Assembly: GCA_042216055.1 (NCBI GenBank)
Contig: JBDGUH010000001.1
Span: forward strand, 2,213 to 66,212
Length of the DNA stretch: 64,000 nucleotides
From: Haloarculaceae archaeon
GTDB taxonomy: Archaea; Halobacteriota; Halobacteria; Halobacteriales; Haloarculaceae
Reading direction: 5' to 3'
The number at the start of each line of letters is the position of its first letter. Within the stretch, counting starts at the first letter, position 1. The notes below the pieces were generated by a model. It did no database searches. It was given only the letters and a program-made list of their open reading frames with translations, and had not been told where the DNA came from. Shown one piece after another: positions 9,934 through 45,636 of the stretch. The position numbers and the translations under genes were made by a program.

Positions 9934-10159
9934 GTTAAAGACGAACCCTCGTGGGGTCGAAGCAGGACTACGTGGCGAACAACAGGATCGACGTGACCGT
10001 TACAGACGAACCCTCGTGGGGTCGAAGCCAACACCGGGTTGATCAACCTCGGCGCGATGAGGTAGTTACAGACGAACCCTCGTGGGGTCGAAGCGCGATG
10101 CTGCCGGAGGTCGATCTCGACGAACCGGCGTTTCAGATGAACCCTTACCGAGTCGGGGG
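9934..10159 (+). CRISPR. Type I-B CRISPR mini-array: 3 intact 30-nt repeats, 3 spacers, 1 degenerate terminal repeat
   Basis: Repeats at 9934-9963 (GTTAAAGACGAACCCTCGTGGGGTCGAAGC), 9999-10028 and 10065-10094 (GTTACAGACGAACCCTCGTGGGGTCGAAGC). Degenerate repeat at 10130-10159 (GTTTCAGATGAACCCTTACCGAGTCGGGGG, about 20/30 matches). Spacers are 35, 36 and 35 nt. The repeat resembles the haloarchaeal I-B repeat ending in ...GAAGC, which implies plus-strand transcription. Confidence 0.9.
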
Positions 10160-26918: not shown

Positions 26919-27464
26919 GTGAGTAGCGGCAACGACGCCCGCAGGCGCGTCACGGAACGTCTCCAGGTAGACCCCGGAACGCAGGCACTCGTGTCGCTGC
27001 GATCGATGGACGACCTGCTCGAATTGCTCCCTCCCGAGGCGTTCCGGAATCTCCTGTTCGTCTCGACCGAGACGCCCGCGGACGTGGAGGGGACGCTCCG
27101 CGAACGAGGAGCGGACCCCTCCGCGGTCGGCCTGTTACCCGTCTCGGGGGCGACGACCGAGTACGATGGCCCGCTGTCCGTCGCCGAACCGGTCGTCCCG
27201 GACGACCTGACGGGGCTGAGCATCCAGTTCACGGCCGCGCTCGACGCGCTTACACCGGGGCGGGGATGGGTGTGTTTCGACTCCCTCAACGTCTTCCTGC
27301 TGTACGCGACCGAGAACCGCACCCAGCGCTTCTTCGACCACGCCGTCACGCGCGCCCGAGAACGGAACCTCTGTGGCGTTTACGGCGTGGTCAGGGAGGC
27401 GATGGACGACCGGGCCTACGAGCGACTGCGACGCGGCTTCGGCGCCGAAATCGATCGTCGCTGA
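26919..27464 (+). CDS. Conserved haloarchaeal hypothetical protein (possibly an inactive KaiC/RecA-like fold)
   Basis: NLLFVSTETPADVEGTLRERG...GWVCFDSLNVFLLY resembles KaiC-like strand order without a Walker A motif. The start is ambiguous (TTG 26877 or GTG 26919). The TGA stop at 27462-27464 doubles as the MITE target-site duplication. Confidence 0.45.
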   Translation: MSSGNDARRRVTERLQVDPGTQALVSLRSMDDLLELLPPEAFRNLLFVSTETPADVEGTLRERGADPSAVGLLPVSGATTEYDGPLSVAEPVVPDDLTGLSIQFTAALDALTPGRGWVCFDSLNVFLLYATENRTQRFFDHAVTRARERNLCGVYGVVREAMDDRAYERLRRGFGAEIDRR

Positions 27465-27544
27465 TACGGATCATTGAGACCCTGTACCGATCCGACCACA
27501 CGACGTCGTGCGATCGAGACGGGAGTGAATCGCAGTAACCCGTA
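27465..27544. mobile_element. 80-nt palindromic MITE, copy A (flanked by TGA/TGA)
   Basis: TACGGATCATTGAGAC...CGATCGAGACGGGAGTGAATCGCAGTAACCCGTA. Has terminal inverted repeats and a central hairpin. 3-bp direct repeats lie at 27462-27464 and 27545-27547. Confidence 0.8.
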
Positions 27545-27591
27545 TGAAACGGTCTCTCGCGAGATAGCGCCGAAACGGCCCCGCTCGCCGT

Positions 27592-28662
27592 TCAGTCGTA
27601 GCGAACGCGGCCGTCGTCGGTCACGTCCGTCACGGTCCCCTCGGGCGCGAACGTCGTCGCGACCATCGAGGACTCGATCGTGTCGCCGCCGTCGAGTACG
27701 TCGATGGTGCCGTTCTCGCGCTGGGCGTCGGGGATCGTGTTGCCGGGGTAGGCCGTCGTCGGTTCGATGCCGGCGGTGTAGTTGCGCCCCCAGAACGGCG
27801 CCTCGTTGGCCCCGCCGAAACACTGCCAGTACCACAGCGTCTCGAACGGGTCGACCGGCCAGGTGAGCGCGAATCCCAGATCGAGATCGGGGTTCCGGAC
27901 GGCGTACCACCCGTCCGCGAGTTCCGTGCCGTACACCATGTCGAGATACCCCTTCTCGGGCAGCACCGAGAGGTCGACCGCGTCCCCGTCGGTGCCGGGG
28001 GCGTTCGGCCACTCGAAGAAGCTATCGCCCGCGAGGCGGGCGGTGTCGGCGTCCGGGCCGTAGGTGTCGACGTAGGCCCGCTCGATCGGCGCGTCCAGGC
28101 GAGACCCCGGTGCGGCCAGCGGTTCGCCGAGCGCGAGATGGTGCTGCCAGATGTACTCCAAGTCGACCTCGCTGAGATTGGTGATCGACTCGTCGATCTC
28201 GAGGCGGGACGCGTCCGCGGGGAGCGTCAGTTCGCGGGTCACGTCGAAGGGGTAACGCCGCAGTTCGGTCGACAGTTCAAGCGCCACGGCCTCGTCGTCG
28301 TCGCGGGTGATCTCGGCGTCCCAGGGGAGGAGCGCGCTCTCGCCGTGGTGGTCGTAGTGGTTGCCGGGAAAGTCCATCCCACCCGCGCCAGCGATCGGGA
28401 GGTTCACCTGCCAGCCCCCCGGATAGAAGTCGTTCCAGGACAGCTCAGTCGTCGGGATCCGCCGCTCGGCCGGCGGCACCCAGTCGTGGTCGGCGTGCCA
28501 GAGCACGTCCACGTCCGTGCGCTTGTCCCTGAACTCGACGATGTCCCCGCCCTTGCCCGGGAGCACCGTGAGACGGAGGTGTCGGTTCTCCAGGATCGCG
28601 GCCTCGACCCCCTTGTAGGTGTAGTCCGTCGAGATCCGCGGGCGATCGTTCCAGTAGCTCAT
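27592..28662 (-). CDS. Aldose-1-epimerase-like (galactose mutarotase fold, DUF4432-like) protein
   Basis: ILENRHLRLTVLPGKGGDIVEFRDK...DVLWH...YPGGWQ...HGES pattern. The assignment is by resemblance only. Confidence 0.5.
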   Translation of the reverse strand: MSYWNDRPRISTDYTYKGVEAAILENRHLRLTVLPGKGGDIVEFRDKRTDVDVLWHADHDWVPPAERRIPTTELSWNDFYPGGWQVNLPIAGAGGMDFPGNHYDHHGESALLPWDAEITRDDDEAVALELSTELRRYPFDVTRELTLPADASRLEIDESITNLSEVDLEYIWQHHLALGEPLAAPGSRLDAPIERAYVDTYGPDADTARLAGDSFFEWPNAPGTDGDAVDLSVLPEKGYLDMVYGTELADGWYAVRNPDLDLGFALTWPVDPFETLWYWQCFGGANEAPFWGRNYTAGIEPTTAYPGNTIPDAQRENGTIDVLDGGDTIESSMVATTFAPEGTVTDVTDDGRVRYD

Positions 28663-31231: not shown

Positions 31232-32749
31232 ATGCGATACAGCACGAACTACGACGTCGGCGAGCGGAAGCGAGAGGACGGCATCAACGAGGACAGCATC
31301 GCGCTGGCGGTGTTCGAGCAGGGCCACCGCGAGGGCTACCGGGGGGAGGACCGACCGCTCGGTGACCGCCCGCCGGACGCCGCCGTGGCGAACGACGACG
31401 CCCAGGCGGGCGAGAGCGCGACGGCGGAGCCCGCAGCGAACGACGACCGGACACGTGACCGGGACGAGAAATCGCCGGACGACGGCGAGGTGCGCGCCGA
31501 CGAAGCGGTGCCCGCCGAGCAGGGATGGCACGCCGAGGACAGGTCGGACGACGAAGACGTGGACGGGGTGGACGTCGAAGACGAGGACGAAAGGGACGCC
31601 GAAGCCGAGGACGGGGTAGACGCCGAAGCCGAGGACGGTGCGGACGCTGAAGACGTGGGCGGAGCGAACGCCAAAGACGAGAACGGATCGGACGCTGAAG
31701 ACGTGGGCGGAGCGAACGCCAAAGACGAGAACGGAGCGGACGCCGAAGACGAGAACGGAGCGGACGCCGGGGATGAGAACGAGGTGGCGGCCGACACCGT
31801 CGACGAGAATGCCCGGACAGCGCCGCTGAACCGTTCCGGGGCCGCGTTCGCCCTGGCGGACGGCGCGGGCGGACACGAGGCGGGGGACGCCGCCTCGTAT
31901 ATCGCGTCTGCCGTCGCCGTCGAGGAACTGGCGTCCGTGGCCGTGCGAGCCACGCGGACCGACCCCCAAGGGTTCGACCTGCCGGAGGGCGTCCCGGCCC
32001 CCGAACGGTCGACCGACGAGGAGATGCAGGGGGCCGTCGAGCGCGCGGTCGTCGCCGCCCACCGCCGCGTCCTCGAGTACGCCGCGAGCGAGGGAACCCC
32101 CGCGTACACGACGATCGTCGCGGGCGTCGTCGCGGACGGTCGCCTCCACTACGGGTGGGTCGGCGACAGCCGGGCCTACGTCGTCAACCGCGAGCGGGGC
32201 GATCTGGCGCTGCTGACCAAAGACCACGCCGTCGTCGAGGAACTCGCCGACGCCGGCGAGGTCGACGAGGTCGAGGCACACGTCCACCCGCGGGGCAACG
32301 AGATCACGCGGGCGGTCGGCGGTGCCGGCGACGCCGATCCCGAGACGGCGGCGGTCCCGGTCGAGACGGCGTCCGTGCCGCTGTACGCCGAGGACGTGCT
32401 GGTGGTCACGAGCGACGGCCTGATCGACGCCCAGACCGACGCGCCGTCGCTGTACGAGGAGTACCGCGAAGCGGGCCGCGACGAGGCGGCCGCCGAGACC
32501 GTCCTCGAGAAGGTCGTCACGGACGCGCAGGTACGTGACCTCGTGCTCTCGGCGTCGACGCTCGACGAACTGGTCGACGACGCGGTCGAACTGGCGAACG
32601 ACCGCGGCGGGAAGGACAACGTCTCGATCCTGGCGCTGTCCGCGCCGTCCGCGCCACCCACCCCCGCCGACGGCGGTCTCCCGACCAGGGCCGCCGACCC
32701 CGACGTCCCCCTCGAGGAACGCGAGACGGTGCTCGTTCCCGAGAAGTGA
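31232..32749 (+). CDS. PP2C-family Ser/Thr phosphatase with a large acidic repeat insertion
   Basis: NEDSIALAVF, ALADGAGGHEAGDAAS, VGDSRAYVV, VVTSDGL and GGKDNVSILAL are PP2C motifs. A ~190-aa D/E/A/G-rich segment separates motifs 1 and 2. ATG lies 1 nt after the kinase stop. Confidence 0.85.
   Translation: MRYSTNYDVGERKREDGINEDSIALAVFEQGHREGYRGEDRPLGDRPPDAAVANDDAQAGESATAEPAANDDRTRDRDEKSPDDGEVRADEAVPAEQGWHAEDRSDDEDVDGVDVEDEDERDAEAEDGVDAEAEDGADAEDVGGANAKDENGSDAEDVGGANAKDENGADAEDENGADAGDENEVAADTVDENARTAPLNRSGAAFALADGAGGHEAGDAASYIASAVAVEELASVAVRATRTDPQGFDLPEGVPAPERSTDEEMQGAVERAVVAAHRRVLEYAASEGTPAYTTIVAGVVADGRLHYGWVGDSRAYVVNRERGDLALLTKDHAVVEELADAGEVDEVEAHVHPRGNEITRAVGGAGDADPETAAVPVETASVPLYAEDVLVVTSDGLIDAQTDAPSLYEEYREAGRDEAAAETVLEKVVTDAQVRDLVLSASTLDELVDDAVELANDRGGKDNVSILALSAPSAPPTPADGGLPTRAADPDVPLEERETVLVPEK
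31643..31738 (+). repeat. Near-perfect 2 x 48-bp tandem repeat inside the PP2C acidic insert
   Basis: GACGCTGAAGACGTGGGCGGAGCGAACGCCAAAGACGAGAACGGA(T/G)CG occurs twice in a row (31643-31690 and 31691-31738). Related 24-bp units follow. Confidence 0.9.
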
Positions 32750-32851: not shown

Positions 32852-34114
32852 ATGTCAGAATCAACGACCGACACGCAGGTGGAGTGTCTCGTGTGTGGGG
32901 AATCGTTCGATCCGACTGAGGCTGGGGGTTGGTGTACGAACCCGGAGTGTGGCGAATGGCGCTACGAGGGGCCGGAGGTGCCCCAGCCCGACGACGCCGC
33001 CGACGATAGTGCGGCGGACGTCGCGGACGAGGGCGACGCGGATCTCGAATCCGACGAGGACGGACCGCTCGGCGACCTGACCGACGCTGATCTCGAGGAA
33101 GGGAGCGGGGACGCCGACGCGTCAGCCGGCGACGACCGAGGGGACGGCATCGACGCCGACGCCAACGGGGAGGCGGACGCCGAAGACAGTCCTAAAGAGG
33201 ACGCCGGTGACATGGACGGTGCCGACGCCAGCGCTGAAGCAGACGCCGACGGCGTGGCCAGTCCCGAAGGCGGAGCCGTGGCCGACGACATGAACACCGA
33301 TTCCGACGTGGACGCCGCCGGGACGGCCGGCGACGACGCCGGGATGGCCCCCGATGCGACAGGTGGAGACGCGGCTTCTACTGACGAAGATGCGACTTCT
33401 ACTGACGAGAACGCGGCTTCCACTGACGAAGAGGCGACGCCCGCCGACGAGGCCCCCTCGGCGGACGCGGAACGGGAAGCCGCGACGGAGGCCCCCTCGG
33501 ACGGGGAGACGGGGGAGGGCGAGACGATCGACTGTCCGGACTGTGGGGCGTCGCTCGCGCCGGACGTGAACTTCTGCTCGCAGTGCGGGACCGACGTCTC
33601 GGACCTCCCGATCGAGGGGCTGTCGGCCTGTCCGTCCTGTGGCGCCGACGTGGACGACGACGACAACTTCTGTGCGAGTTGCGGCGAGGACCTGGCCGCC
33701 CGCCGCGAGGACGATGCGGGGGAGACGGCGCCCGAAGGAACGAGCCCGGAGGACGACGAAGTGGCCCCCGCAGCCGGTGAGGCGGGGGCGACGACCGAGG
33801 CCGAAGACCTGCCCGAGTCGCTCGTGCTCGAGGTCCGCGGCGGCGAGATCGACGTGAGCGACGGCGACGCCGTGGGAAAGCAGGTCCGGACGGCCATCAC
33901 GGACGCCGGCGGCTCCGAGGAGGAGGCGCTGAAAGTCCACCGCGAGCACGTCCGGATCGTCCGGGAGTCGGACGGCTTCTACGTCGTCGACCTGGGTGAC
34001 AACCCGACGAACGTCGCCGGACAGCGGCTCACCAAGGGCGAGCGAGCGAAGATCGAGCGCGGAGACACAATCTCGCTGTCCGGGGTCGCCACGCTGACGG
34101 TCCGGTATCCCTGA
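32852..34114 (+). CDS. Zinc-ribbon / acidic linker / double zinc-ribbon / FHA-domain protein
   Basis: N-terminal CLVCG...CTNPEC. Long D/A/E-rich linker. DCPDCG...CSQCG and CPSCG...CASCG. The C-terminal FHA-like fold is VGKQVR...HREHVRIV...NPTNVAGQRL. Confidence 0.75.
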   Translation: MSESTTDTQVECLVCGESFDPTEAGGWCTNPECGEWRYEGPEVPQPDDAADDSAADVADEGDADLESDEDGPLGDLTDADLEEGSGDADASAGDDRGDGIDADANGEADAEDSPKEDAGDMDGADASAEADADGVASPEGGAVADDMNTDSDVDAAGTAGDDAGMAPDATGGDAASTDEDATSTDENAASTDEEATPADEAPSADAEREAATEAPSDGETGEGETIDCPDCGASLAPDVNFCSQCGTDVSDLPIEGLSACPSCGADVDDDDNFCASCGEDLAARREDDAGETAPEGTSPEDDEVAPAAGEAGATTEAEDLPESLVLEVRGGEIDVSDGDAVGKQVRTAITDAGGSEEEALKVHREHVRIVRESDGFYVVDLGDNPTNVAGQRLTKGERAKIERGDTISLSGVATLTVRYP

Positions 34115-39150: not shown

Positions 39151-39660
39151 ATGATGCTGGTCGTCGATGCCAACGTCGTCATCTCCGCACTCATTGCAGA
39201 CTCGAAAACTCGCGAACTCATCGTTACGCTCGAACCCAATCTCTTGACGCCCGAGTTCGTCCATGACGAAATCGGGAACTACGAGGAGCTGATCCTCGAG
39301 AAGTCAGGGATGACTCCTGATCGGGTCGCACAGTTTATCGAACTCCTGTTTCATACGGATTATTGCGACTGTTTACCGGTCCGACCGCACGGCTCCGTGC
39401 GGTCGAGACGGGAATGACTCGCAATAATCCGTATCAGTACATCGAAGACGTTCCCGCAGGCGAGTTCTATCCGTATCTCGAGGATGCCGACGCGGCAATC
39501 GGCGACATTGATCCCGACGACGTGTTGTACGTCGCGTGCGCTCATGCTACCGATGCAGATATCTGGAGCGCCGATTCCGATTTCGAGGAACAGAATCTTG
39601 TCGACGCCCACACGACGAGTGACGTGGTCGAGTCGTTCGACACGCTCTATTCAATCCAAG
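39151..39660 (+). pseudogene. vapC: PIN-domain (VapC-like) toxin gene disrupted by an 80-nt MITE
   Basis: The N-terminal part MMLVVDANVVISALI...EFVHDEI... is in frame 1 up to 39353. The C-terminal part QYIEDVP...ACAHATDADIWSADSDFEE... is in another frame after 39436. Removing 39354-39436 (element plus one TCA) fuses them in frame. The 3' end is uncertain because no in-frame stop occurs before 40805. Confidence 0.7.
39354..39433. mobile_element. 80-nt palindromic MITE, copy B (flanked by TCA/TCA)
   Basis: TACGGATTATTGCGA...TCGCAATAATCCGTA is a perfect 15-bp terminal inverted repeat. The central hairpin is CGACCGCACGG-CT-CCGTGCGGTCG. Direct TCA repeats lie at 39351-39353 and 39434-39436. Confidence 0.85.
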
Positions 39661-39707: not shown

Positions 39708-40733
39708 CTAGTACCCGCCGTCGTCCACCGCAGTCGGCGTCGCGGTCGCCTCGTCGGTCTCCTCGTCCGACTCCGCCTCGCGGATCGGTCGGCCACGCGG
39801 GTCGAGTACCCGCCAGACGCCGTCGACTCCCTGCCCGTACGCGTCGCCCGGTTCGTCGTCGCTCTGGAACCCGTACAGCGGCCAGCCATTGGCGGCGACC
39901 TGAACCCCGTCGTCGTCGCGCTCGAACGTCGACAGCGCCGCCTCGACGCCGTCGCCGGCGGTCGGTGTCCCGTCGACAGTCAGCGGGGGCCAGGCCGTCG
40001 CACAGCCACCCGTACAACTGCTCCGGGCTGCGCCGCGCGTGTCGTCCTCGAACACGTACAGCGTCATCCCATGGGCGTCGACGAGGATCTGGCCGTACTC
40101 GTCGTGATCGCGGACCCGGACCGTCGCCGGCGTCTCGGTCGTCGTCGTCGGGGTCGCCGTGGTCTCGGGGCGCTTGGGCGTGCCGTCGGGTCCGAGCACC
40201 CACCAGTTGTCGCCGACGCCCTGGCCGTTCGCGTCGCCGGGTTCCCCGTCGGAGCCGAAGTAGTACAGCGGCCAGCCGCCGGCCGTGACCTGGGTCGATC
40301 CGTCGAGGCGCTCGAACGTGTCGAGTTCGGCCGCGACGCCGTCGCCGGCGACCGGCGTGCCGTCGACAGTCAGCGGGGGCCAGGCTCCCGCACAGCCGCC
40401 CGTGCAGGCGCTCTCGTGGGCGCCGTGAGTGTCGCTGTCGAACATGTACAGCGTCAGGCCGTCCGGTCCGACGAGGAGGGGGCCCAGGTCGGGATGGTCC
40501 CGAACGCGGACGGTCGCCGCGGAGGAGGGCGTGGCCGTCCTCGACTCGGTCGAGGGGGACGTGGACGTCGCCGACTCGGTCGGCGAAGGGGGCTCCGTCG
40601 GAGGGGCCATCCGATCCGCGGAGTCCGTGGTCGTCGGGGTCCCGTCGCCTTCGCCGTCGCCGGTACACCCGGCCAGCGCGAACGCCAGAGCCGAGGTGGC
40701 GGTGCCGAGCAGCGCGCGTCGTGTGGGCGGCAT
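39708..40733 (-). CDS. Tat lipoprotein with two tandem copies of a conserved secreted repeat (COG4315-like)
   Basis: Signal RRALLGTATSALAFALAGC. A Thr/Ser/Pro linker. Two ~110-aa repeats, each with VRVRDH...LY.F..D......C.GGCA.AWPPLTV...GWPLY.F..D. Confidence 0.75.
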   Translation of the reverse strand: MPPTRRALLGTATSALAFALAGCTGDGEGDGTPTTTDSADRMAPPTEPPSPTESATSTSPSTESRTATPSSAATVRVRDHPDLGPLLVGPDGLTLYMFDSDTHGAHESACTGGCAGAWPPLTVDGTPVAGDGVAAELDTFERLDGSTQVTAGGWPLYYFGSDGEPGDANGQGVGDNWWVLGPDGTPKRPETTATPTTTTETPATVRVRDHDEYGQILVDAHGMTLYVFEDDTRGAARSSCTGGCATAWPPLTVDGTPTAGDGVEAALSTFERDDDGVQVAANGWPLYGFQSDDEPGDAYGQGVDGVWRVLDPRGRPIREAESDEETDEATATPTAVDDGGY

Positions 40734-44738: not shown

Positions 44739-45512
44739 ATGAAACGTGTCCGCTTCCGGGACTCCGCCGGCAACGTGAGGGGCGGCCGGTGGACCGTCGA
44801 GGACGGCGAGCCAAAGGTCACGGCCGCCGCCGGGCCGTACGGCCGGATCGCCTTCGGTGACGAGAGCTACGCCCCCGAGGAGGTCGACGTGCTCCCCCCC
44901 TGTGAGCCGACCAAGATCGTCTGTGTCGGCCTGAACTACCGGGATCACGCCGAGGAGCAGGACTCGGAACTGCCCGAGCGCCCGCTCCTCTTTCTCAAGC
45001 CGCCCAACGCCGTCGCCAGCCACGACAAGCGGCTGACGCTGTTGCCCGACAAGGAGCGCATCGACTACGAGGCCGAACTCGGCGTCGTGATCGGCGAGCA
45101 GTGCAAGAACGTCGACGCCGACGGCGCGATGGACGTGGTCGCGGGGTTCACCTGTGTCAACGACATCTCGAACCGCGACGACCAGCGCGTCGAGCAAAAC
45201 TGGGTGCGGGGCAAGGCCTTCGACAACTCCGGGCCCATCGGTCCGCTGGTCGCGACCCCGGAACACGTCCCCGAGGACGCGAGCATCGAACTCCGCCTGA
45301 ACGGCGAGACGCGCCAGTCCTCGACCCGGGACAACATGATCTTCACCGTTCCCGAACTGATCGAGGAGATCACCGCCTACATGACGCTGGAACCGGGCGA
45401 CGTGATCGCGACGGGCACGCCCGCCGGCGTCGGACCGCTCTCGAACGGCGACACGGTCGAGGTCGACATCGAGGGCGTCGGGACGCTCCGGAACACGATC
45501 CGGATCCCCTGA
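44739..45512 (+). CDS. Fumarylacetoacetate hydrolase family protein
   Basis: KIVCVGLNYRDHAEE, YEAELGVVIG, GFTCVNDISNRD, PGDVIATGTPAGVG. The TGA stop at 45510-45512 is also the MITE target-site duplication. Confidence 0.85.
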   Translation: MKRVRFRDSAGNVRGGRWTVEDGEPKVTAAAGPYGRIAFGDESYAPEEVDVLPPCEPTKIVCVGLNYRDHAEEQDSELPERPLLFLKPPNAVASHDKRLTLLPDKERIDYEAELGVVIGEQCKNVDADGAMDVVAGFTCVNDISNRDDQRVEQNWVRGKAFDNSGPIGPLVATPEHVPEDASIELRLNGETRQSSTRDNMIFTVPELIEEITAYMTLEPGDVIATGTPAGVGPLSNGDTVEVDIEGVGTLRNTIRIP

Positions 45513-45592
45513 TACGGATTCTTGTGACTCGTTACCGGTCCGACCGAACGCCGTCGTACGGTCGAGACGGGAGTGACTCGCAATAATTCGTA
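45513..45592. mobile_element. 80-nt palindromic MITE, copy C (flanked by TGA/TGA)
   Basis: TACGGATTCTTGTGAC...CGGTCGAGACGGGAGTGACTCGCAATAATTCGTA. Direct TGA repeats lie at 45510-45512 and 45593-45595. Confidence 0.85.
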
Positions 45593-45595
45593 TGA

Positions 45596-45611
45596 TACGG
45601 ATTCCTGGGAC
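45596..45611. repeat. Solo MITE left-end fragment abutting copy C
   Basis: TACGGATTCCTGGGAC matches the left end of copy C (TACGGATTCTTGTGAC) at 14/16 positions. It starts right after the right-hand TGA. Confidence 0.5.
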
Positions 45612-45636
45612 TAGTGGGCCCGTTTCGCGGTTGCCG

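Follow-up and report, generated by a model that had tools for sequence, protein, structure and literature searches.

Does the palindromic 80-nt sequence that stands at three places in a 64,000-nt stretch of contig JBDGUH010000001.1 of a Haloarculaceae archaeon (hereafter the window) represent mobile DNA, or is it a structure that belongs to the ends of genes? The first-pass annotation read it as a possible non-autonomous transposon with inverted repeats. The restoration of a PIN-domain gene when one copy is removed, empty sites at orthologous loci and consistent target-site duplications all support that reading, and we are confident that these repeats form a very small (69-80 nt) non-coding family of the MITE type, spread across the class Halobacteria.

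Three copies of the element in the window

Copies A (27465..27544), B (39354..39433) and C (45513..45592), given here on the + strand, are each exactly 80 nt long. All begin with TACGGAT, end with (C/T)CGTA and contain an invariant TCGAGACGGGA. Copy B is the best preserved, with a terminal inverted repeat that is perfect over its first 15 positions and matches at 17 of 20. Ungapped pairwise identities were 65/80 (A-B), 64/80 (A-C) and 69/80 (B-C), that is, 80-86%. Each copy is flanked by the same three bases in the same orientation, TGA/TGA (A), TCA/TCA (B) and TGA/TGA (C). In all these points, including the range of identities estimated earlier, our results agree with the first-pass annotation. 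Repeat finding placed the three copies in one family, a 33-nt probe had 0 expected chance matches (100 shuffles) and a profile built from unrelated copies elsewhere matched the window copies with E values of 3e-18 to 3e-15, so that a chance origin is excluded (nhmmer gave E = 2.8e-15 for copy A and 6.4e-16 for copy C). An assembly from an independent read set (Logan SRR28304477) contains this DNA together with the element.

Profile search found no further copies in the window beyond these three and a remnant of 17 nt. This remnant, TACGGATTCCTGGGACT (45596..45612, + strand), follows directly after the right TGA of copy C and corresponds to another left end: it matches about 14 of the 15 conserved left-repeat positions of the window copies, and the similarity ends after some 17 nt. 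We infer that the element probably inserted twice into the same TGA and that the older copy was later truncated.

The predicted fold of copy B is a near-perfect rod (-51.4 kcal/mol, z = -8.3). That of copy C is weaker (-37.2 kcal/mol, z = -4.1), and copy A folds well on the minus strand only (z = -4.0 versus -1.2 on the plus strand). No Rfam family reached its gathering threshold for the element, the only match around copy B being MIR4380, a plant miRNA hairpin model, with 24 bits against a gathering score of 83. The only Rfam matches at gathering level in the window were CRISPR repeats.

Insertion of copy B into a PIN-domain gene

Copy B lies inside a coding sequence. The ORF at 39151-39417 encodes the beginning of a PIN-domain protein, whose remainder is carried by the ORF that continues out of the element. 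Alignment with homologs delimits a 5' part of the disrupted gene at 39151..39353 (residues 1-67) and a 3' part at 39437..39647, both on the + strand. The two TCA triplets of the duplication are at 39351..39353 and 39434..39436 (+ strand). Joining position 39353 to 39437, which removes the 80 nt plus one TCA (83 nt), restores the reading frame together with the motif LLFQYI, the ancestral sequence being CTG TTT CAG TAC (L F Q Y); if both TCA triplets are kept the result is LLFHQYI. LLFQYI is invariant in the alignment, and the version with the extra His is found in no homolog. Since only the removal of 80 nt and one TCA gives back LLFQYI, the duplication is exactly 3 bp. Rejoined in this way, the protein shares 84-85% identity with its closest 138-aa haloarchaeal homologs over 97% of its length, and 78-85% with the members of the aligned set. 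This 138-aa family is found throughout Halobacteria (756 matches) and the gene is uninterrupted in hundreds of relatives. Judged by frame and homology, the insertion of copy B is proven. The conserved stop codon position (39648-39650) now reads TAT and the stop is lost, so the disrupted gene looks as a decaying pseudogene would.

Two other readings of this locus were considered and rejected. A duplication of TA, as produced by IS630-like elements, would require the empty site to have 5 additional nt and to be out of frame, in conflict with LLFQYI. An archaeal bulge-helix-bulge intron does not agree with an outer helix that lies wholly within the element, nor with flanks that differ between copies, nor with the loss of the PIN stop codon.

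Copies A and C stand at stop codons

The first-pass annotation had missed that, in copies A and C alike, the left TGA also ends the upstream gene as its stop codon, a pattern that turned out to hold for most of the family. Copy A is located in the 127-nt spacer that separates two convergent genes, 27006-27464(+) and 27592-28662(-). The first of these (GC3 0.84) belongs to the DUF7504 family (PF24336), and its stop codon at 27462..27464 is at the same time the left TGA of the element; the second TGA is found at 27545..27547, also on the + strand. A 100% identical DUF7504 protein adjoins the same element in the Logan assembly. Copy C follows a gene of the fumarylacetoacetate-hydrolase (FAH) family (44739..45512, + strand; PF01557; GC3 0.94), with its stop at 45510..45512 serving as the left TGA. 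The right TGA (45593..45595, + strand) is also the left flank of the remnant. A 100% identical protein labelled 'MAG: Haloarculaceae archaeon' appears among the FAH homologs.

Nearly all of the listed orthologs of the two proteins have the same length as the window genes (152 aa for DUF7504; 257 aa for FAH, among 120 matches listed). The DUF7504 loci L056 and L057 end in CGC TGA, and the FAH loci L045 and L047 in CCC TGA, none of them carrying the element. Orthologs thus share the stop codons without the element, indicating that the stops predate insertions A and C and that the elements arrived in this lineage. Together with the uninterrupted PIN genes, empty sites exist for all three window copies. 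The element is located at the ends of many haloarchaeal genes and within at least one. For annotation, recognising it explains split genes such as the PIN one and odd 3' spacers.

Distribution and structure of the family

We looked for the element in metagenomes and plasmids, where 36 distinct copies were examined, 34 of them with ends that could be scored. BLAST against plasmids gave a divergent copy in Haloarcula rara, flanked by TGA/TGA, that revealed which positions are conserved. The metagenomes were scanned with the pattern TACGGA N14 TACCGNTCCGACC; 26 stretches were returned, 14 with true copies of a second subfamily, and profile searches added more copies on the same metagenome contigs. 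With a subfamily consensus as query, a single plasmid BLAST search gave 77 places in 26 plasmid records, up to a maximum of 18 places on one replicon of 1.6 Mb. Species of Natrinema and Natribaculum are among those with 9-18 places on a replicon. A scan of genome contigs with TCCGACC N12-20 TCGAGACGGGANTGA, a pattern based on the window subfamily and too strict, returned only 4 chance matches, all bacterial, the source genome itself being outside that collection. The pattern scan of viral contigs gave 0 matches, and BLAST against phages only chance matches in E. coli phages.

The copies come from at least 12 haloarchaeal genera (Haloarcula, Natrinema, Natribaculum, Natronorubrum, Halomarina, Haloterrigena, Halomontanus, Halococcus, Halapricum, Salinibaculum, Halomicrobium, Natrialba and Natronococcus) and at least three families, Haloarculaceae, Natrialbaceae and Halococcaceae. 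In none of the annotated records inspected was the element an annotated feature. Many copies are old and eroded, as are those of the window with their 80-86% identity and those of Halomontanus rarus with decayed ends.

Copies range from 69 to 80 nt, one variant being as short as 69 nt, and have no coding capacity. The outer terminal repeat of about 28 nt is common to all of them, with the family consensus TACGG(A/T)C(Y)GCTGTAACGATTTACCG and the version TACGGATTNTTGNGAC in the window subfamily, and between the repeats lies a GC-rich central hairpin that differs by subfamily. The idea that the rod-like fold is kept by compensating changes was borne out by an alignment of 25 copies, in which Watson-Crick or G-U pairs make up 92.6% of the pair cells, as against 21-47% in slid controls. 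The 13 pairs of the outer helix are 93% paired, and 13 of 20 pairs have changed on both sides; none of 500 shuffles came up to this. In the outer helix such compensation is expected, since one transposase must bind both ends, and its occurrence in the central hairpin shows that the palindromy itself is maintained.

The target-site duplication

Beyond the window the 3-bp direct flanks are consistent; with the empty sites described above, both tests by which the first-pass annotation could have been refuted were passed. They are identical in 26 of the 34 scorable copies (15 TGA, 10 TCA and 1 TAA), and seven further copies differ at one flank base. The two triplets of a copy co-vary, and TGA is never combined with TCA within one scorable copy. 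The TAA/TAA copy (L054) comes from Natrinema thermotolerans, where that TAA is the stop with which tpiA ends. Of the duplication proposed earlier, T(G/C)A, the length and the T-N-A form therefore hold, and the restriction to G or C at the middle base does not; the rule is T-N-A. TGA and TCA are one site read on opposite strands, so the element inserts in either orientation into one kind of target, which often has C at -1 and G at +1. Of the copies on stops, 14 have one orientation with respect to the gene and 8 the other (p = 0.29). Both orientations are what a symmetric target would give, and the figures argue against selection for a strand-specific RNA signal.

Stop codons, target choice and alternative explanations

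The duplicated triplet is exactly a stop codon in 22 of the 36 copies, as judged from annotation and from ORF and GC3 evidence, and the other 14 are off any recognisable stop. In nine cases a PGAP-annotated CDS ends exactly on the triplet (L034, L035, L036, L037, L038, L048, L051, L052 and L054). The products are an ArsR regulator, a pyridoxamine-phosphate oxidase, a rubredoxin-like protein, a universal stress protein, a PHP-domain protein, a cation:proton antiporter, a VOC-family protein, a low-molecular-weight phosphatase and the triose-phosphate isomerase. In the remaining cases it is a long ORF with high GC3 that ends on the triplet. Insertion at a stop rebuilds the stop and leaves the protein unchanged, which would account for most surviving copies standing on the stop codons of flanking genes. 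Duplicating the stop triplet is thus a simple route to a neutral insertion.

How much of this pattern is due to the enzyme and how much to selection is a matter of weighing. The element might insert at any TNA, insertions into genes and promoters being purged, and the stops would then be, in compact GC-rich genomes, most of the TNA sites left in the tolerated 3' spacers. The short convergent spacers, as reconstructed, measure 50 nt for A, 47 nt for C and 55 nt for L036 and have the two flanking stops as their only TSA (TGA/TCA) sites, so that site availability alone does produce part of the pattern; copy B, inserted into a coding sequence, and the copies off stops also fit this idea. Longer spacers show the same choice, however, with the stop used among 12 TSA sites at L034, among 11 at L037 and as one of 2 at L038, the joint probability over six cases being 0.004. 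Against the 12% share that stops have among the non-coding TSA sites of the window, a null derived from rough, approximate gene calls that overestimate intergenic space, 22/36 gives a binomial p = 4e-12, and even a generous null of 29% (3' spacers only) leaves p = 6e-5. Moreover, GAC precedes the stop in 12 of the 22 stop insertions versus 4 of the 45 TGA-ending genes of the window (p = 7e-8). Selection on stops cannot yield such an excess, and sequence beyond the triplet, approximately GAC|TNA|G, is probably recognised by the enzyme. Unrestricted insertion at TNA followed by purging is consequently a possibility to which we give limited credit, and the sequence context points to a GAC|TNA|G preference combined with selection. 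The family is a concrete, testable system in which the effects of target choice on the distribution of a transposon can be told apart from those of purifying selection.

The same evidence bears on two explanations that do without a duplicating transposon. The element could be a relic of the IS200/IS605 type (a 'PATE'), mobilised in single-stranded form by a Y1 (HUH) transposase and placed 3' of a short target, with the right triplet belonging to the element. Haloarchaea have IS605-type elements, and derivatives of them without a transposase, in great abundance (PMC3119063), and the strong hairpin and short specific target would suit them. PATEs, however, have subterminal hairpins, no terminal repeats and no target duplication (PMC3119063). 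Here the inverted repeats extend to the very termini, the co-variation of the left and right triplets in 26 copies, never mixed, fits a duplication and not a fixed end, and with respect to one target strand the element is inserted either way round. With terminal repeats and a true duplication the element is not an IS605-type relic, an origin that we consider very improbable. A vertically inherited 3'-UTR structure, such as an mRNA-stabilising hairpin or a transcription terminator, would account for the position of most copies directly after stop codons and for the compensated rod fold. The latter is expected anyway at terminal repeats bound by one transposase, and the copies follow unrelated genes of different families, in both orientations. 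The terminator scan was empty at the three window copies with regard to a hairpin-plus-T-run signature, the longest T run inside the element being TTT. It is the orthologous loci without the element and the copy inside the PIN gene that decide the matter: as an origin, a 3'-UTR structure is already refuted, and we consider it very improbable. In a secondary role, some copies may possibly have been co-opted as 3'-end hairpins of the preceding mRNAs.

Mobilisation

Returning to the mobile, non-autonomous element, its features suggest a cut-and-paste mechanism with a transposase probably of the DDE type. An enzyme supplied in trans would bind both element ends and make cuts staggered by three bases at T-N-A, with GAC|TGA|G as the preferred context; the element would be joined in either orientation and gap repair would duplicate the T-N-A. 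Codon bias, which would place C, often as GAC (Asp), just before TGA and TAA stop codons, may then bring the target and the stop together.

The first-pass annotation saw no transposase with matching ends in the window, and our scan for pairs of terminal inverted repeats found none there either. No autonomous element with these ends was detected in about 60 loci by the same scan, or in 300 kb of the Halomontanus rarus plasmid NZ_CP119800.1; this plasmid has 7 matching places, and the 300-kb stretch, which has no annotated transposase, contains four recognisable copies besides some fragments. The partial BLAST matches to the terminal repeats that could have been a parent IS (H77, H79 and H80) were further short or eroded copies, and the ends of an IS630-type pseudogene next to the copy at L035 are unrelated. 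Without an autonomous partner, the link to a parent IS that defines a MITE is missing. Duplications of 3 bp are made by none of the canonical IS types in the published Haloquadratum table (PMC3119063), and on these grounds a transposase type not recognised so far in haloarchaea might move the family. Its GAC|TNA|G specificity might have evolved precisely so that the duplication rebuilds the stop, a 'silent landing'; we regard this scenario as a whole as rather unlikely. If true, it would account for the persistence of an 80-nt element, in few copies, in almost all lineages of haloarchaea.

Comparison with known elements

Duplication of T-N-A is a property of IS5 (IS1031 and ISL2 groups), of the eukaryotic PIF/Harbinger elements and of Tc4/Tc5 in the Tc1/IS630 superfamily. 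PIF/Harbinger and the Tourist MITEs insert at TTA/TAA within CWCTTAGWG, and Tc4/Tc5 at CTNAG. The element described here is similar to them in the T-N-A duplication, the partly palindromic target and the insertion in either orientation, a likeness of target features only; no similarity of the ends to those of these groups was shown, and no transposase of the IS5, PIF/Harbinger or Tc4/Tc5 type was found beside or around any of the copies. Bacteria have rod-forming MITEs, such as Correia/NEMIS (Neisseria), ERIC and RUP, which are likewise short, palindromic and non-autonomous, are frequently found at the ends of genes and are transcribed together with them; several elements of this kind have no known active parent. 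They differ from the archaeal T-N-A element in being bacterial and in having mostly TA duplications, and we know of no rule by which their duplication coincides with a stop codon.

With the MITEs already catalogued in haloarchaea, MITEHsal1-14 of Halobacterium salinarum (PMC7002104) and HqIRS35-39 of Haloquadratum walsbyi (PMC3119063), our element shares the lack of coding sequence, the terminal inverted repeats, the target duplications and the occurrence in several dispersed copies that sometimes disrupt genes (PMC7002104, PMC3119063). Those MITEs are larger (118-416 nt versus 69-80 nt), produce duplications of 6-10 bp in place of 3-bp T-N-A, are confined to one species each, whereas this element is found across many genera, and are tied to a parent IS of the ISH4, ISH8, ISH9, ISH11 or Tn5 types, whereas no parent was found here.

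The small mobile repeats (SMR) of Haloquadratum, whose mobilisation has been called enigmatic (PMC3119063), are the only entries of this size in the published Haloquadratum table and also have prominent terminal inverted repeats. Those of the SMRs are described as having no relation to a known transposon; for the element here, no related transposon was found in the window, the loci and the plasmid stretch examined. One of them, the SMR-B HqIRS41, is 79-80 bp long with an inverted terminal repeat of 17/21 and is known only from strain C23 (PMC3119063). SMRs reportedly lack a target duplication and are mainly inserted in other mobile elements (PMC3119063), whereas the element found here has 3-bp duplications. 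One may speculate that a 3-bp duplication was perhaps overlooked in the original SMR description. Our search of the open literature turned up no account of an 80-nt haloarchaeal element that duplicates 3 bp and, as far as the literature searched shows, this is a new MITE family, apparently among the smallest transposable elements known in archaea.

Variant copies of the element

Outside the window the element was found in several versions that differ in flanks and length. In Natrinema thermotolerans (CP031304.1) one copy, located at positions 599-690 of the retrieved locus L054, is flanked by TAA/TAA and lies where tpiA ends with a TAA stop codon. This is the only duplication other than TGA or TCA among the copies seen, and it widens the target rule to T-N-A. 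The metagenome contig Ga0207718_100261 contains a 129-nt copy (L013, 7469-7597) that is flanked by TCA/TCA and whose ends are intact. About 49 additional nucleotides are found in its centre; these could represent either a longer variant of the element or an insertion into it. Natronorubrum bangense (NZ_CP031309.1) carries a 69-nt variant with a shorter and different central hairpin (L048, 2502-2570), also flanked by TCA/TCA; according to the annotation, a cation:proton antiporter gene has its stop codon at the right TCA.

An unannotated and frameshifted pseudogene of an IS630-family transposase was detected in Natribaculum luteum (NZ_CP095398.1; L035, about 1400-2290) ~120 nt away from a copy of the element. 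The ends of this pseudogene showed no resemblance to the terminal repeats of the element.

Insertion sites of copies B and C

Immediately adjacent to the right TGA of copy C there is what appears to be the remnant of a fourth copy, a truncated left end (45596-45612), suggesting two insertions in succession at the same stop codon. A chance resemblance is still conceivable, because the orthologous locus that lacks the element (L045) has a weakly similar sequence, TTCGGTTTCT, at the corresponding place.

The PIN-domain gene split by copy B has TAT at 39648-39650, where all homologs have a stop codon, and beyond this point the frame continues antisense to the adjoining lipoprotein gene. The lost stop fits gene decay following the disruption. 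In Rfam, copy B (39349-39442) matched the plant microRNA precursor model MIR4380 with a sub-threshold 24 bits versus a gathering score of 83; this is a generic likeness between long hairpins, biologically meaningless here.

Other repeats in the window

The minus-strand gene at 39708-40733, whose product is secreted or lipoprotein-like with two repeated domains, contains a direct duplication of 300 nt (39803-40102 and 40193-40492, 73% identity). Long runs of GAC/GAA/GAG-rich tandem repeats of 24 and 21 nt are found at 31462-31829 and 33348-33451, and probably code for an acidic repeat protein. Finally, three CRISPR repeats spaced by 65-66 nt (9934-10094) match the Rfam family CRISPR-DR24 with 36.7-41.7 bits, and are either the edge of a larger array or a very short one.
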